This document shows, one piece after another, positions 14,643 to 63,168 of a stretch of 64,000 nucleotides of DNA. The position numbers were made by a program, and so were the translations under genes. Positions within the stretch are counted from its first letter, which is position 1, and each line of letters begins with the position of its first letter. Below the pieces are notes generated by a model that was not told the origin of the DNA, made no database searches, and was given only the letters and a program-made list of their open reading frames with translations. This DNA is from Acidobacteriota bacterium (GTDB lineage: Bacteria; Acidobacteriota; Polarisedimenticolia; Gp22-AA2), in the NCBI GenBank assembly GCA_003223135.1, contig QHXX01000023.1:64120-128119 (forward strand), given 5' to 3'.

Positions 14643-14717
14643 GGGCGGTTAGCTCAGCGGGAGAGCACCTGCCTTACAAGCAGGGGGTCACTGGTTCGAA
14701 TCCAGTATCGCCCACCA
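14643..14717 (+). tRNA. tRNA-Val (anticodon TAC)
   Basis: Cloverleaf folded by hand: acceptor GGGCGGT/ATCGCCC (one G-T wobble), anticodon stem CCTGC/GCAGG, loop CTTACAA, T-arm GGTTCGAATCC, encoded CCA. Confidence 0.93.
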
Positions 14718-14765: not shown

Positions 14766-14842
14766 GGGGTCGTAGTTCAGCTGGTTAGAACGCCGGCCTG
14801 TCAAGCCGGAGGTCGCGGGTTCGAGCCCCGTCGACCCCGCCA
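14766..14842 (+). tRNA. tRNA-Asp (anticodon GTC)
   Basis: Acceptor GGGGTCG/CGACCCC, anticodon stem CCGGC/GCCGG, loop CTGTCAA, T-loop GTTCGAG, discriminator G, encoded CCA. Confidence 0.93.
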
Positions 14843-58980: not shown

Positions 58981-60321
58981 CTAGAGAGATTTGAGGAGTG
59001 GCGCCACCTTCGCGAACGCCTTCAGGTGCGTCTCGATGTCCGCCTCGGTGTGCTGGACCGAAATCGTCCATTGCTCGTCCGGGCCGGGCGGTTGCGGGAT
59101 GACTCCCTCGTTCAACATCGCCAGGTACCAGGCCTGTGAGGCGACCCGATCGACGACGTACCAGTCGCGATAGTCCCGGATGACGTCCTTCCTGAAGTTG
59201 ATCGTTCCCATCGAGCCGACGCCGTTGGCGTAGCAGGGAAGGTTGTGCTCGCGGATGAGGGTGCTATAGCCGTCGACCAGCTTCTTGTTGAGCGCGAAGA
59301 CGCGGCGGTAGGCCTCGTCGGTGAGGATGTCCTTGAGCGTCGCCTCCGCTGCCGCCAGAGTGACCGGATTGCTGGCGTAGGTGCCGACGTGGATGACGCG
59401 CAGCGAGTTGAGCTCTTCCATGATTTCAGCCGAGGAGCCGAAGGCGGCGAGCGGCATGCCGCCGCCAATCGCCTTCGCCAGCACGGTGATGTCCGGCTTG
59501 ACCTTGAAGTACTCGGTCGCTCCGCCGCGGGCGATCTTCACGCCGGTCTTCACCTCGTCGAAGATGAGCAGGGCGCCGAACTCGTTGCACAGTGCGCGCA
59601 GACCGGGGAGGAAGTCGGGGAGCGGCTCGGTCACCCCCATGTTCATCATGATCGGCTCGAGGATGACGCAGGCGACCTCGTTCAGGTGCTCCTCGAGCAG
59701 GGCGCGCACCCCCTTCAGGTCGTTAAAGGACGCGACGAGCGTGTGCGCATAGGACTCCGCCGGAATGCCCTCGCTCCAGGGGATCGGGCGCGGCCGGCTC
59801 CTGAGCCCCGCCAGTCGCAGTGGCGGCTTGTTCGACACCAGGACCGTGTCGTGCGCCCCGTGATAACCGCCTTCGAACTTCAGGAGCCCGGGCCGGCCGG
59901 TATACCCGCGCGCCAGACGGATGGCATGCATCGTGGCCTCGGTGCCCGAGTTTGCGAAGCGCCACTGGTCCTGCCCGAAGCGTTCCCGGAGCTCCTTCGC
60001 CACAGAGATCTCCAGCCGATGCGGCATCGCGTGCAGCGTCCCGCGCTTCGCCTGCGCCGCGATCGCATCAACGATCTTAGGATGGGCGTGCCCCACCAGC
60101 ATCGCGCCGAAGGCATTGGAGAAGTCGGTGTAGCGGTTCCCGTCGGCGTCGGTGATGGTCGCGCCGACCGCGGACTCGATGAAGATCGGGTTCGGGTCGA
60201 CGACCCGGAAGTTGGACGAGACCCCGCGCGGCAGGAGGCGCTTCGCCTCGCCGTGCAGCTCGCGGGACTTCTTCGTCCGCTCGATGTAGCGGTTGACGAT
60301 CGCGTCGTAGGTGCCGGACAT
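58981..60321 (-). CDS. class-III PLP aminotransferase (glutamate-1-semialdehyde 2,1-aminomutase-like)
   Basis: GSA-aminomutase-like fold, PLP-Lys region IFDEVKTG; GGGGAGGGG SD. Confidence 0.85.
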   Translation of the reverse strand: MSGTYDAIVNRYIERTKKSRELHGEAKRLLPRGVSSNFRVVDPNPIFIESAVGATITDADGNRYTDFSNAFGAMLVGHAHPKIVDAIAAQAKRGTLHAMPHRLEISVAKELRERFGQDQWRFANSGTEATMHAIRLARGYTGRPGLLKFEGGYHGAHDTVLVSNKPPLRLAGLRSRPRPIPWSEGIPAESYAHTLVASFNDLKGVRALLEEHLNEVACVILEPIMMNMGVTEPLPDFLPGLRALCNEFGALLIFDEVKTGVKIARGGATEYFKVKPDITVLAKAIGGGMPLAAFGSSAEIMEELNSLRVIHVGTYASNPVTLAAAEATLKDILTDEAYRRVFALNKKLVDGYSTLIREHNLPCYANGVGSMGTINFRKDVIRDYRDWYVVDRVASQAWYLAMLNEGVIPQPPGPDEQWTISVQHTEADIETHLKAFAKVAPLLKSL

Positions 60322-60449
60322 GCTGCCCCTCCCCGCCGCTCGACCCGGGACCTCCCGTCGTGGGGGCCTGTCCCAACGAGGCCGTCCCGGCGGGGGACAC
60401 CGAGGCAGGCGCGGCCTGTTGCAACTGGTGCGGCTGAAGGCCGGAGTCT

Positions 60450-60528
60450 ATCAGAGAAAAAGAAAACCCGGAAGCGTCTGCGGCGCAGCGCGCCGCCCCG
60501 GGTGGACCAATGTGCCGGGGCTTCCGGG
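60450..60528 (-). terminator. compound rho-independent terminator on minus strand (outer stem CCCGGAAGC/GCTTCCGGG enclosing two hairpins, then UUUUCUUUUUCUC)
   Basis: Read on minus strand: nested inverted repeats followed by a U-tract; no U-tract on + strand. Confidence 0.55.
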
Positions 60529-60591
60529 TTCGGTGGCCGGCCGGTATTCCTCAGGCGGAGATACCGAGCGGCCCGATGACCGTGGGTCCGC

Positions 60592-60651
60592 CTAAGTTGC
60601 CGCCACCTCACGGGTCCGGTAAGACACCTCGCTGCTACTGTGATAACTCAT
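60592..60651 (-). CDS. candidate 19-aa small ORF (MSYHSSSEVSYRTREVAAT) with consensus SD
   Basis: AAAGGAGGTG followed by 8-nt spacer and ATG; AT-rich codons atypical for this genome; ~80 nt downstream of the DCC gene stop and ~60 nt upstream of a structured region plus terminator. Confidence 0.35.
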   Translation of the reverse strand: MSYHSSSEVSYRTREVAAT

Positions 60652-60728
60652 CTGCTGGACCACCTCCTTTCTCGTGTACGGGAAACATACTCCGGTCGGG
60701 AGGCGGCTGCAACCCACCGCATCCCGTT

Positions 60729-62087
60729 CTAGCGCGTGCCCTCGGCGGGGGACGCGGAAGGGTCGGCGGGATCGAGGCGGCCGGAGGCGGTCGGGACGGC
60801 GGCGGAAGAAGAGTCGGCCGTCTCCGCCGTCATGCCGCTCCAGATCTCATCGCCGAACGGCGCGTCGAAGCGTACGTCCGAGTACTCGACGATCGCTTCG
60901 AGGGGCCCGATCAAGCCGGTCACGTCCGAGGCGTGCACCGTGCGGCGGGTCGGGACACGCACGGCGCCGTACGTCTTGTGGTCGGTAAAGAGCGACACCC
61001 AGTAGGTGCGGTCCCCGCCGCGGTAGGAATGGATCCGATCGATGAGGTGGTTCACCCGGCTCACGTAGATGTCGTGCCAGTCGTCCTTCCGGGCTGCGTC
61101 TTTCGCGTCGAAGGTCAGGCGGACGACATCGCACAGGTCGGACGGCACGCGGCTGGCCGTCGGTGGCGTCCTCTCGCCGAGGTACTGCAGGCGCGATTCG
61201 GCGGCGAGCAGATTCCAGGGCAGGAGAAAGGACCAGCGGGCGATTCGCATGAACGCCCGGGGAAACTCGAGCTGCGCGGGGTCGGTCACGGTCACGCCCG
61301 CGCGCACGACCTCGATCCGGCCGCCCGCGACGCGCACGATCTGCGGCGCCGTCTCGTCAAGGTCCTGGGCGAACGACCGGTCGCCGGGTCCGAGGTCGAG
61401 CCGGTGGACCTGGCGCGCGTTCGCCTGCGGCTCCTTCTGCCCGCCATAGAACTGCAGACGGTAGACGTATTCGACGTTGTGATGGGCGCTCCAGACACCG
61501 TATGGCCCGTAGGCCTGGAACAGGGCCAGGACGACGCCCTTCGCCTGCGGGTCGGCGATCGCCTCCAGGCGTTCGACCACCGGATCGGGCCTGTTCTCTC
61601 CGCATCCCCAGGCCGCGACGACGTTGAGGAGCGTCGGGAGGAGCAGGATGACGACCAGCGCGCGCGGACCTCCGCCGGCGGGCTCTCGACGCCGGGCGTT
61701 TTCTCCCGGCCTGCGGCAGGCGGCGTCGCGGCACGACAGGCGGTACCGTCGAGCCGCTATATATCGATAGACGCGGTCCATCACGAAGGGCACCCCGGGT
61801 ATCTTGTACGCGGCCGCCACCCACGAGAGCCCATCCAGGACGCGGAACAGCACACGCCATCCCTCCGCCCCCTTGTGCACCGATCCGTCGGGAGCGTAGA
61901 CCCACATCTGGCGCATCGCATCCGCGCGATCGAGACCGGGGAAACGCGACGCGGCCGCCGGGTCGTGGACCGACAGCCACTCGACCACGCCCTCCGGGTC
62001 GCGGACCATCATGCGGTCGCGCCAGCGGGTGCAGAACTGGCAGTCGCCGTCGTACAGCGCGACGTAACGGGCCGGGGCGGCGCTCAT
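60729..62087 (-). CDS. DCC-family thiol-disulfide oxidoreductase (DUF393) domain fused to a TM segment and an uncharacterised ~300-aa C-terminal domain
   Basis: N-terminal YDGDCQFC motif and ~120-aa DUF393 region; hydrophobic segment ALVVILLLPTLLNVVAAW; remainder without recognisable family. Confidence 0.65.
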   Translation of the reverse strand: MSAAPARYVALYDGDCQFCTRWRDRMMVRDPEGVVEWLSVHDPAAASRFPGLDRADAMRQMWVYAPDGSVHKGAEGWRVLFRVLDGLSWVAAAYKIPGVPFVMDRVYRYIAARRYRLSCRDAACRRPGENARRREPAGGGPRALVVILLLPTLLNVVAAWGCGENRPDPVVERLEAIADPQAKGVVLALFQAYGPYGVWSAHHNVEYVYRLQFYGGQKEPQANARQVHRLDLGPGDRSFAQDLDETAPQIVRVAGGRIEVVRAGVTVTDPAQLEFPRAFMRIARWSFLLPWNLLAAESRLQYLGERTPPTASRVPSDLCDVVRLTFDAKDAARKDDWHDIYVSRVNHLIDRIHSYRGGDRTYWVSLFTDHKTYGAVRVPTRRTVHASDVTGLIGPLEAIVEYSDVRFDAPFGDEIWSGMTAETADSSSAAVPTASGRLDPADPSASPAEGTR

Positions 62088-63031
62088 GGCGCGTCGGCCC
62101 GTCCCGGCGACGCCGGGCCCGCGCCCTGGCTTGTGGCCGGCTTCGAGTTGGGATTCGGACCGAGCCAGGTCACGGCACCCTCCGCATCGATGCGGAACAT
62201 GAAGCGCGGTGTCAGGACCAGGAGCGGCGCCAGGACGCGGTGGCGCAGCACCAGCGCCACGTCGGTTGGAGCCGGCAGGTCTCTTTGATCGTGCTCGTGC
62301 AGAAGCGGCGTGCCGGGCGCTCGTGGCTGCAGCGACATGGAGGTATTGCGGTCGTGCAGCTTCTCCACCGAGAGAACCTGCCGGCCACTCGCCGCGATCC
62401 GGACCATGAAGTCGCGTCCGAACAGCACGCTTCCCCCCATCCCCGCCGCCACATCCCGTTCGCTCCCCTCCTTCTGCTGGGAGATGACGTACACGGTGAA
62501 CGTGGCGTCCTTCTCCCGCACGACCGCCTCCAGCAACGGCCGTCCCCCCTCCGGGCGGCCGATGGTCGCGATCTCTGCCTGTTCCAGAGAGCGGACGTAG
62601 GACTGAATGGTCGCCGAGGCCGCGCGCGGCGGGCTGGCGAGCCCCAGCGTCCCGAGCTGTCCGGCGTCCGGGCTGAACGTGGTCTCGGCGACGATCGAGA
62701 GTCCCTTGCGGACCATGCCGGACGCGGCGAGGTCCCTCGAGGAGTCACCCACGTAGATGACCCGCCAACCTTCACGATCCGGGATGACGACCGTCCGGTC
62801 CGACGGAGCGGCGCCGCTTCCCTGCGCCTTCAGGAGATCGGCCGCCTTGTCCACGGCCTGCAGATACAGGGCGATCAGACGGCCACGCTCCTGCAGGGAT
62901 GCGAGCGCCTCCGCCGGCGGCCGATCGTTCTGCGCCGCGAGCGGCGTCAGCGCGGCGGCCAGGCAGAGACATCGGAGGGACGCGCGGCCCGCGGCGGCCC
63001 AATCGAACCCACCTCTCGGCGTCATCGCCAT
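62084..63031 (-). CDS. secreted hypothetical protein
   Basis: Internal ATG (MAMTPRGG...) with AGGGAGG SD; signal peptide LRCLCLAAALTPLAAQ; ATGA-coupled to DCC gene. Confidence 0.5.
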   Translation of the reverse strand: MAMTPRGGFDWAAAGRASLRCLCLAAALTPLAAQNDRPPAEALASLQERGRLIALYLQAVDKAADLLKAQGSGAAPSDRTVVIPDREGWRVIYVGDSSRDLAASGMVRKGLSIVAETTFSPDAGQLGTLGLASPPRAASATIQSYVRSLEQAEIATIGRPEGGRPLLEAVVREKDATFTVYVISQQKEGSERDVAAGMGGSVLFGRDFMVRIAASGRQVLSVEKLHDRNTSMSLQPRAPGTPLLHEHDQRDLPAPTDVALVLRHRVLAPLLVLTPRFMFRIDAEGAVTWLGPNPNSKPATSQGAGPASPGRADAP

Positions 63032-63168
63032 GCCTCGAACCTCCCTTGCGATGAGTTCCAGTCTACACCAGCCCATACCCGCCGAAACGAAAGGCCGCCG
63101 CGCGCTTGAAGGACCCGTTTCGATCCCGTATCATGGCCGGTCCCGAACGATTTTCAAGGGAAACGGGT

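Follow-up and report, generated by a model that had tools for sequence, protein, structure and literature searches.

A stretch of 64,000 nucleotides (nt) of DNA from a soil bacterium of the Acidobacteriota (contig QHXX01000023.1, positions 64,120 to 128,119; the whole stretch is called the window here) carries on its minus strand, at 60456..60677, what is almost certainly a stand-alone gene for a divergent member of the Ms_IGR-5 family of small RNAs (sRNAs; Rfam RF02471). Its predicted 222-nt transcript runs from an ACAC 5′ end to a U-tract, and links a strong Shine–Dalgarno sequence (SD) and a short open reading frame (ORF) to an intricate fold. The overall explanation favored here, with a probability of roughly 0.55, is an Ms_IGR-5 sRNA gene whose product would capture ribosomes and be remodelled by translation. 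All features of the element lie on the minus strand, and all positions are window coordinates.

Identity and layout of the element

The family assignment comes from covariance models. One such model, R1, was built from 41 actinobacterial members only, and it matches the acidobacterial element end to end (60456-60677, minus strand; model positions 1-195 of 195) with 62.9 bits and an E-value, to be read as rough, of 2e-14 to 8e-14; it gives no second match in the 64 kb. At gathering thresholds, an Rfam scan of the whole 64-kb window returned only two tRNA genes (14643-14714 and 14766-14839, both on the plus strand) and did not call the element, while a permissive scan targeted at 551 nt placed RF02471 at 60525-60677 on the minus strand with 28.1 bits (E 1.4e-4). 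Alignment to R1 reveals two departures from the family consensus, a 21-nt, exactly 7-codon, in-frame insertion in the ORF and a differing P2 domain, and it is because of these that Rfam under-scores the element. Since a model made from Actinobacteria alone matches over the full length, with a score below the curated Rfam threshold, the element is filed as a divergent member. The signature motifs of the family all occur in the window in their proper order: the 5′ ACAC, the extended SD, GGAC.NGUGAGGUGG, a stop codon 15 nt after GAGGUG, the GAAUNCC bulge, the CACC strand, and a terminator with a GUCC loop. The same order was recognized by eye in 38 diverse members.

The family collection was assembled by scanning species-representative genomes for the exact pattern ACACNNGNAAGGAGGTGGTCC. 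At least 120 loci are listed, mostly from Actinomycetota (Micromonospora, Mycobacterium, Nocardioides, and Pseudonocardiaceae), with further loci among those listed from Acidobacteriota, Gemmatimonadota, and Zixibacteria. RF02471 scores above threshold in 15 of 18 checked loci, non-actinobacterial ones included, at 52-185 bits; members above the gathering score occur in metagenome-assembled genomes (MAGs) of Gemmatimonadota, Zixibacteria, Blastocatellia, and Polarisedimenticolia. A preliminary description of this region had treated the SD, the small ORF, and the structured terminator segment as one unit, and as one conserved unit they reappear, in the same architecture, in more than 140 loci of other genomes and metagenomes. 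It had also set aside transfer-messenger RNA (tmRNA), signal recognition particle RNA, and RNase P RNA, a view shared by the Rfam scans and by ARAGORN, which found no tmRNA in 60200-60900. A match to a known Rfam family had been allowed for as a full explanation; RF02471 does supply the identity, but as a family without known function it does not supply the rest.

The strong SD, the 19-codon ORF, the nested hairpins, and the U-tract that had been described are all present on the minus strand within 60456-60677. The SD AAAGGAGGTG (60661-60670) lies within an extended SD, AGAAAGGAGGTGGTCC (60657..60672), whose 16 nt are complementary, with a single G-U pair, to the 3′ tail of 16S rRNA, which we take to be GGAUCACCUCCUUUCU. 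The spacer from AAAGGAGGTG to the ATG measures 9 nt (GTCCAGCAG) rather than the 8 stated. The mini-ORF (60592..60651; ATG 60649-60651, TAG 60592-60594) comprises 19 codons plus TAG and translates exactly as given, MSYHSSSEVSYRTREVAAT. Its ATG begins 77 nt past the stop codon (60729-60731) of a co-directional gene for a DCC-domain protein, which ends 51 nt upstream of the element. The unusual codon choice is likewise real: the mini-ORF is 55% GC, with a third-position GC content (GC3) of 0.63 against 0.88-0.90 in the two flanking genes, and the lowest-GC 150-nt segment has 60.7% GC. At the 3′ end, an outer stem CCCGGAAGC/GCTTCCGGG surrounds CCCCGG..CCGGGG and CGGCGCGCTGCGCCG and is followed by the U-tract TTTTCTTTTTC (60456..60466), after helix P3; a U-tract also lies 3′ of P3 in non-actinobacterial members. 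This compound terminator, as described, appears in full in the minimum-free-energy fold; the other hairpin proposed, CGGTAT..ATACCG, is complementary but absent from that fold, and it competes with P2, a helix that has comparative support. The transcript as a whole folds modestly better than its shuffles (z = -2.5).

Conservation of the mini-ORF

The reading frame was examined in a frame-blind manner by taking the first ATG, GTG, or TTG after GGTCC in 122 distinct sequences. In every one of them (122/122), this codon, the first NTG downstream of the SD, shares its reading frame with the conserved GAGGTG and with a stop codon whose position is fixed. The distance from the start codon to GAGGTG falls into seven classes (21, 24, 30, 36, 39, 42, or 45 nt), all multiples of 3, while the untranslated spacer between SD and start codon varies freely (1, 4, 5, 6, or 7 nt in the same test). 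The triplet 15 nt after GAGGTG is TAG in 109 sequences, TGA in 8, and TAA in 5, and never a sense codon. Frames range from 12 to 20 codons, with 12 in most relatives, and start codons across the family (loci L001-L120) are TTG in 69, ATG in 39, and GTG in 12, an excess of TTG that is striking for high-GC bacteria. The closest relatives of the element, the window's clade, were gathered from syntenic loci and a metagenome scan with a clade-specific pattern, which together gave 33 further loci and 23 distinct sequences including the window. Within this clade the structured RNA is nearly invariant and codons 2-12 of the mini-ORF are the most variable part of the element, yet these hypervariable 30 nt acquire no stop codon or frameshift. 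The frame is always open, at 19 codons, or 18 in L138, where a single in-frame 3-nt deletion has occurred.

The encoded residues behave in the opposite manner. The residue at position -6 (R, C, G, or S) is invariably specified by an NGT codon and covaries with transcript nt 5, the one at -8 (R, W, or G) is invariably specified by an NGG codon, and the ACN codon at position -7 changes with its partner in the P3a loop. The rare codons CGT and GCT show no third-position variation. Near the C-terminus (T-R-E-V-A), E-V is invariant and T and A are nearly so. Neither purifying selection on the residues nor the codon bias of the host (the GC3 contrast given above) was seen, and the M. tuberculosis Ribo-RET supplements contained no match to the predicted peptide. 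Because the frame, its start, and its stop are fixed while the variable residues follow RNA base pairing, it is very probably translation itself, and not the peptide, that is under selection. Of the two things that might be conserved in relatives, peptide or RNA structure, it is the structure that is kept, with changes in the peptide dictated by pairing. Among the three options offered in the preliminary description, a dual-function sRNA comes nearest; a secreted or functional peptide fits poorly with residue variation that tracks RNA pairing and an N-terminal half that is free to vary.

The first four codons are, family-wide, rich in A/T-ending codons (TTA, ATA, AAT, TAT, AGT), which are presumably rare in these high-GC genomes. 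This feature points to an unstructured landing pad, to slow early decoding, or to both.

Secondary and tertiary structure

RNAalifold, applied to a plain MAFFT alignment, returned two helices, P1 of 9-10 base pairs (bp) and P3 of 13 bp, each with many compensatory changes. In its family form, P1 joins GGUGGCUGYN, within codons -5 to -2, to NRCAGYCACC located 40-95 nt downstream, a 10-bp helix with compensatory changes at five pairs family-wide. Its strands in the window are the SD-like GGTGGCGGC (60599..60607) and GCCGGCCACC (60532..60541), the latter reading GCC(G)GCCACC, and in the clade the pair 77-172 is GC in 18 sequences and UA in 5. P3, with compensatory changes at 12/13 pairs family-wide, belongs to a three-way-junction terminator domain (60466..60529), in which 60520-60529 pairs with 60466-60475 to form P3, followed inward by hairpins P3a (60496-60519) and P3b (60481-60495). 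All three helices are kept in the clade and in the minimum-free-energy fold. P2, whose 5′ strand CTTAGGCGGA (60587..60596) holds the stop codon and pairs with TCCGCCTGAG (60550..60559), is likewise found in that fold and in the clade, where 97.8% of its cells are paired, with U-A to U-G swaps. An unpaired bulge sets the 3′ strand of P2 apart from that of P1; it reads GAATACC(G) (60542..60549), and its family motif GAAUNCC is kept in sequence and position in Actinobacteria, Acidobacteria, and Gemmatimonadota.

Two further contacts draw the 5′ end and the terminator domain toward the ORF. The helix H5′, in general form nt 2-5 CACN with N′GUG at codons -6 and -5, is represented in the window by CACG (60673..60676) and CGTG (60609..60612; codon -6 and the G of codon -5). 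Among 121 distinct sequences, nt 5 and N′ form G-C in 87, A-U in 21, C-G in 7, and U-A in 1, with 5 non-pairs, so that 116/121 are Watson–Crick. The pseudoknot, in general form GGACN (codons -8 and -7) with N′GUCC in the loop that caps the terminator domain's first inner hairpin, joins GGACC (60613..60617) to GGTCC in the P3a loop (60504..60508) and shows compensatory changes both in the family and in the clade. Its pair 55-347 is CG in 88, UA in 4, and UG in 1, with none unpaired; pair 59-346 is GC in 30, UA in 19, AU in 14, UG in 3, and CG in 1, with 26 others; and the clade has GC in 18, UG in 2, and UA in 1. Codons -8 to -1 together with the stop codon form a continuous strand with four partners: pseudoknot, H5′, P1, and P2. 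Covariation supports the predicted long-range helix P1, the H5′ helix, and the pseudoknot to the terminator domain, each of which is missing from the part of the Rfam consensus that was inspected.

Several controls bear on this fold. Over the whole structure, 94-96% of cells are paired as opposed to 83-86% in shuffles, and by any measure 0/500 shuffles reach the observed value, a comparison that serves as a control and is not a probability. Sliding the 3′ partners by 1-3 columns lowers pairing to 34-46%. An unbiased mutual-information scan ranks H5′ 7th and the pseudoknot 18th, among the P3 pairs, and yields no tertiary contacts besides these two. Because both contacts lie outside the structure of the covariance model, the alignment was not fitted to them. 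Every assigned pair is standard in the window, and in the clade alignment 98% of cells are paired, while the pseudoknot, P1, and P3 show compensatory changes. Anchors for the P1 3′ strand and the terminator missed members with bulges or divergent sequence, the window element among them, and gave way to the covariance model.

The fold appears to leave the translation start mostly exposed. In thermodynamic ensembles of 123 members, computed without the pseudoknot, the median unpaired fraction is 0.60 for the SD core and 0.65 for the start codon, as against 0.22 from GAGGUG to the stop. In the ensemble of the window, the SD core AAAGGAGG is 0.85 unpaired and the UGGUCC part is mostly paired. An A/U-rich loop of ~55 nt, closed by H5′, carries the SD, the start codon, and the first codons.

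Two other pairings of the SD arose from folding. One, with an upstream CCGCCUCC in a fold of 60450-60730, was rejected, as CCGCCUCC belongs to the promoter and would precede the inferred start of the transcript. The other appears in the minimum-free-energy fold of the full transcript, in which UUCUUUUUC of the U-tract (60456-60466) pairs with GAGAAAGGA of the SD region (60665-60673). It is probably incidental and is not conserved in Actinobacteria, which are without a U-tract; in the modelled fold it could act as a mask on the SD in full-length transcripts of the window's clade.

Predicted promoter and transcription unit

The gap between the DCC gene and the element contains a -35 element, TTGCAG (60707..60712), 17 nt upstream of a -10 element, TATGTT (60684..60689), which ends 7 nt before the A of ACAC (60677). 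Both are family features. In the 146 distinct upstream regions of the family, the end of a TANNNT hexamer falls at -7/-8 in 142 and at -6 to -9 in 145, and the -35 is represented in 139 by a TTG at a spacing of 16-19 nt; in the window's clade the -10 spot reads TATGTT, TAACCT, TAGATT, or TATCTT. A rule-based promoter and terminator scan of 59800-61300 returned none at its thresholds, with rules that exclude compound stems, and it is because the stem is compound that so simple a scan missed the terminator. Read from its signals, the element is a stand-alone gene with its own predicted sigma-70-type promoter, a putative start at the A at 60677, and a predicted three-way-junction intrinsic terminator ending at 60456.

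The neighboring genes differ from lineage to lineage; ORF calls are noisy in high-GC DNA, and their clustering suffices for lineage-specific synteny only. The upstream gene may be aminodeoxychorismate-lyase-like or encode an ABC transporter, MsrA, or the DCC protein. In mycobacteria, a class-IV aminotransferase (aminodeoxychorismate-lyase-like) lies upstream, and a convergent gene of ~220 residues, then a convergent thiosulfate-sulfurtransferase-like gene, lie downstream; this neighborhood is presumably the Rv0812 to Rv0815c region of M. tuberculosis. In Micromonospora the element lies between MsrA (upstream) and a metallo-beta-lactamase-fold gene (downstream); in Nocardioides it follows an ABC transporter gene and precedes a gene for an MFS transporter or MarR. 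The clade locus L123 has a 470-nt insertion between the DCC gene and the element, with the promoter kept on the element's side. The preliminary description had placed the element at the tail of the DCC operon; given the conserved promoter between the DCC stop codon and the element, and neighbors that vary by lineage, that placement is abandoned.

Published data on relatives, all of them Streptomyces or Mycobacterium members, agree with a separate transcript. The members in S. lividans (PMC8079986) and S. avermitilis (PMC8780764) are discrete sRNAs supported by RNA sequencing (RNA-seq), and the M. smegmatis member is an A-initiated sRNA capped with nicotinamide adenine dinucleotide (10.1101/2021.12.14.472595).

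Proposed mechanism

The mechanism put forward here, ribosome capture followed by unzipping, is tentative and somewhat short of probable. The SD and start codon, exposed in their loop, would dock a ribosome (30S or 70S), placing the folded core at its mRNA entrance. Translation of the mini-ORF would then unzip the pseudoknot, H5′, P1, and P2 in that order, and the RNA would switch back and forth between a compact form free of ribosomes and an opened form engaged by one. Its effect might be to sequester or park ribosomes; alternatively, translation might expose the GAAUNCC bulge or the 5′ end, or lead to decay of the RNA. An internal GAGGUGG, with its end 5 nt ahead of the last sense codon, could allow the 16S tail to re-pair at termination. 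Counted from the first base of the start codon, the knot of the 12-codon forms starts ~13-14 nt downstream; by this geometry, it would sit at the mRNA entrance of an initiating ribosome that holds the start codon in its P site. The GAAUNCC bulge is a candidate interaction site only.

A bolder and more doubtful extension would make Ms_IGR-5 a new class of "ribosome-docking" RNA, whose function is to be bound and read by the ribosome, in Actinomycetota, Acidobacteriota, Gemmatimonadota, and Zixibacteria. Such an RNA would present in a loop its start codon, in many members a weak UUG, together with a sequence almost perfectly complementary to the 16S tail, and would have its knot unzipped through a meaningless mini-ORF. 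It might act as a sensor or buffer of free ribosomes and initiation capacity, or as a parking or test substrate for ribosomes, and would be neither a base-pairing sRNA nor a coding gene.

Several observations weigh against the ribosome-capture explanation. Compared with the 12-codon forms, members of the window's clade have 21 extra nt between start codon and core; a ribosome sitting at the start would then stop short of the knot, so that a strictly made-to-measure docking loses support and translation, beyond mere docking, would have to belong to the cycle. We know of neither a trans-target nor a partner protein. The SD could also be masked in its 3′ half by either of two local pairings, GUCC/GGAC and the Rfam GGUGGU/GCUGCC, which are 94-97% compatible with the sequences and carry no informative covariation, one side never varying; a conformational switch by way of these pairings is possible. 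The conservation of ACAC and the SD within the collection holds by construction, an exact SD pattern having chosen the set, and the 28.1 bits of the window element do not reach the RF02471 gathering score of 45 bits. Published ribosome profiling (Ribo-seq) signal on the family is also present on classical non-coding RNAs and is thus weak evidence, and the family sRNA has been called "validated but yet uncharacterized" (10.1101/2021.12.14.472595).

Alternative explanations

Two alternatives take opposite views of the mini-ORF. According to one, the element is a small-protein gene for a functional peptide of 19 residues (12 in most relatives) ending near T-R-E-V-A, for example a ribosome-arrest or signalling peptide, and the RNA structure tunes its expression. 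Conservation of start, frame, and stop in 122/122 sequences, the invariant E-V with its nearly invariant T and A, and the strong SD would all be expected of such a gene, which is nonetheless quite unlikely: all conserved residues are encoded by base-paired nucleotides, and the variable ones track a pairing partner (the NGT of -6 with nt 5, the ACN of -7 with the P3a loop). The codons CGT and GCT keep their synonymous positions fixed despite being rare in high-GC genomes, no constraint shows in the N-terminal half, GC3 is 0.63 beside ~0.9 in flanking genes, and the peptide has no hydrophobic or signal-like segment. The converse view, of a purely non-coding RNA that binds a protein or pairs with the 16S tail or mRNAs, regards start, frame, and stop as structural by-products that are not productively translated. 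It draws on the same pairing, which accounts for all conserved codons, on a stop codon placed inside P2 within a palindromic GCUAGC, on covariation-supported helices that together with P2 bury two thirds of the ORF, and on the weakness of the Ribo-seq evidence. It is unlikely in that it leaves unexplained why the first NTG is in frame in 122/122 sequences across seven length classes while the spacer varies freely, why the stop triplet is TAG, TGA, or TAA and never sense, and why the hypervariable 30 nt of the clade contain no stop or frameshift.

The remaining two attach the element to its neighbors. A cis-acting leader or attenuator, in which translation of a leader ORF sets terminator formation and controls the downstream class-III aminotransferase and M20 peptidase genes, is suggested by the classical order of leader ORF, alternative helices, and terminator, by an ORF 3′ half that pairs with sequence abutting the terminator, and by an aminotransferase gene 240-320 nt downstream in most clade loci. 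Such an arrangement is improbable for a family that has no common downstream gene: the gene there is convergent in mycobacteria and unrelated in Micromonospora and Nocardioides, and even in the clade L124, L131, and L138 have no aminotransferase directly downstream. No antiterminator pairing was seen, though no systematic search was made for one; a TGnTAnACT motif after the terminator could independently drive the downstream genes; and in Streptomyces the RNA accumulates as a discrete sRNA. Least credible is that the element is the 3′ untranslated region and terminator of the DCC operon, with the small ORF translated from operon mRNA. A co-directional gene does lie 51 nt upstream, and one ends 40-60 nt upstream in many lineages, but this same 40-60-nt gap holds the conserved -35/-10 promoter, the upstream gene differs among lineages, and the insertion in L123 leaves the promoter with the element, all of which makes an operon tail highly improbable. 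The stand-alone sRNA gene whose product would capture ribosomes remains the favored explanation.

The window's clade and side loci

Source-given organism names among 50 homologues of the 452-residue DCC-domain fusion protein are only Acidobacteria/Acidobacteriota MAGs; the window therefore appears to come from an acidobacterium and not from an actinomycete, and a Streptomyces-like reading of it, with the assumptions that this would bring, was rejected. These relatives keep the gene order MauE/DoxX, FAD-binding oxidase, a gene of unknown function, DCC, the element, aminotransferase, and M20 peptidase (upstream side at 60729-63076 in the window). Two loci, L126 and L130, are identical to the window across the element. 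Over L121-L153, the downstream class-III aminotransferase shows 78-95% amino-acid identity, compared with 53-74% for the upstream DCC fusion protein.

Directly past the U-tract (60445-60453) the window reads TGATAGACT, in the clade form TGnTAnACT (CTGATAGACT, CGGATATACT, CTGCTAGACT), a motif absent from L124 and L128. It looks like an extended -10 element and could drive the downstream aminotransferase–M20 genes. The CGGUAU..AUACCG hairpin (60543-60565) would pair the GAAUACC bulge with a GGUAU inside P2 and is mutually exclusive with P2. Its complementarity is retained in the distant clade member L128 (GCUGGUAU with AUGCCAGC), and it could form a clade-specific alternative conformer once P2 opens. 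Two long inverted repeats, both rich in GC (for example GGGCGGGCTGCGGGGGCGTGGC .. GCCACGCCCCCGCAGCCCGCCC), lie within the insert in L123 (5285-5740, ~470 nt), which is possibly a repeat or mobile insertion.

A full-length member with 94.7 bits and a perfect GGAGGUGAUCC was found at 3001-3177 of L154 (GenBank MT835602.1, "UNVERIFIED: Bacteriophage sp.", human faeces). Its flanking DJ-1/PfpI, carboxylesterase, and CNNM/CorC genes are housekeeping genes; a phage origin was rejected, and the record looks like a misassigned bacterial contig. It was the one phage record with a member in the phage and plasmid collections, where a Nocardia record given as a "plasmid" measures 2.66 Mb.

Relation to known systems and implications

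The Rfam entry, which files the family as an sRNA gene, names IGR-5 of M. smegmatis, between MSMEG_5794 and MSMEG_5795. The element shares with the family the 5′ ACAC, the extended SD, the GGAC.NGUGAGGUGG core, the GAAUNCC bulge, the terminator domain with its GUCC loop, and, as predicted from its signals, the organization as a stand-alone unit; it differs in its 21-nt ORF insertion, its other P2 domain, its sub-threshold Rfam score, its acidobacterial genome, and its canonical U-tract. A literature search found no functional study of the family, and in the searchable papers none that described its cross-phylum distribution, its conserved yet "meaningless" mini-ORF, or the revised pseudoknotted fold.

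Other RNAs that combine structure and translation offer partial parallels. Dual-function sRNAs (SgrS/SgrT, RNAIII/hld, SR1/SR1P) are also small, independently transcribed, structured RNAs carrying a short ORF. In these the peptide is selected and the ORF is separate from the base-pairing seed, whereas in the present element the peptide sequence is apparently unconstrained and the ORF codons serve as helix strands. In leader-peptide attenuators and ribosome-sensing leaders (trpL, tnaC, the upstream ORF of whiB7), too, the act of translation matters and the ORF overlaps a helix strand beside an intrinsic terminator, but the element is a complete gene with no conserved downstream gene and, in the pairings seen so far without a systematic search, no antiterminator. 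tmRNA resembles it as a stable structured RNA with pseudoknots, an internal short ORF, and a stop codon in a helix, and departs from it in the tRNA-like domain, for which ARAGORN and Rfam were negative here, and in an ORF that, in the element, has its own SD and ATG. As in ribosome-stalling and frameshift-stimulating pseudoknots, the knot of the 12-codon forms would, by geometry, stand at the mRNA entrance; unlike those, the element has no slippery site and no second frame, and the spacing in the window's clade is 21 nt longer.

For annotation, the region is to be recorded as an independent sRNA gene of a catalogued family, not as an operon tail and not as a peptide gene. The Rfam name "Actinobacteria sRNA" is too narrow, the family reaching at least three other phyla. 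Its fold appears pseudoknotted beyond the part of the Rfam consensus inspected, and its frame was in all likelihood selected for being read and not for the encoded product. Should the docking view be true, Ms_IGR-5 would be a rare RNA whose ligand is the translating ribosome itself.

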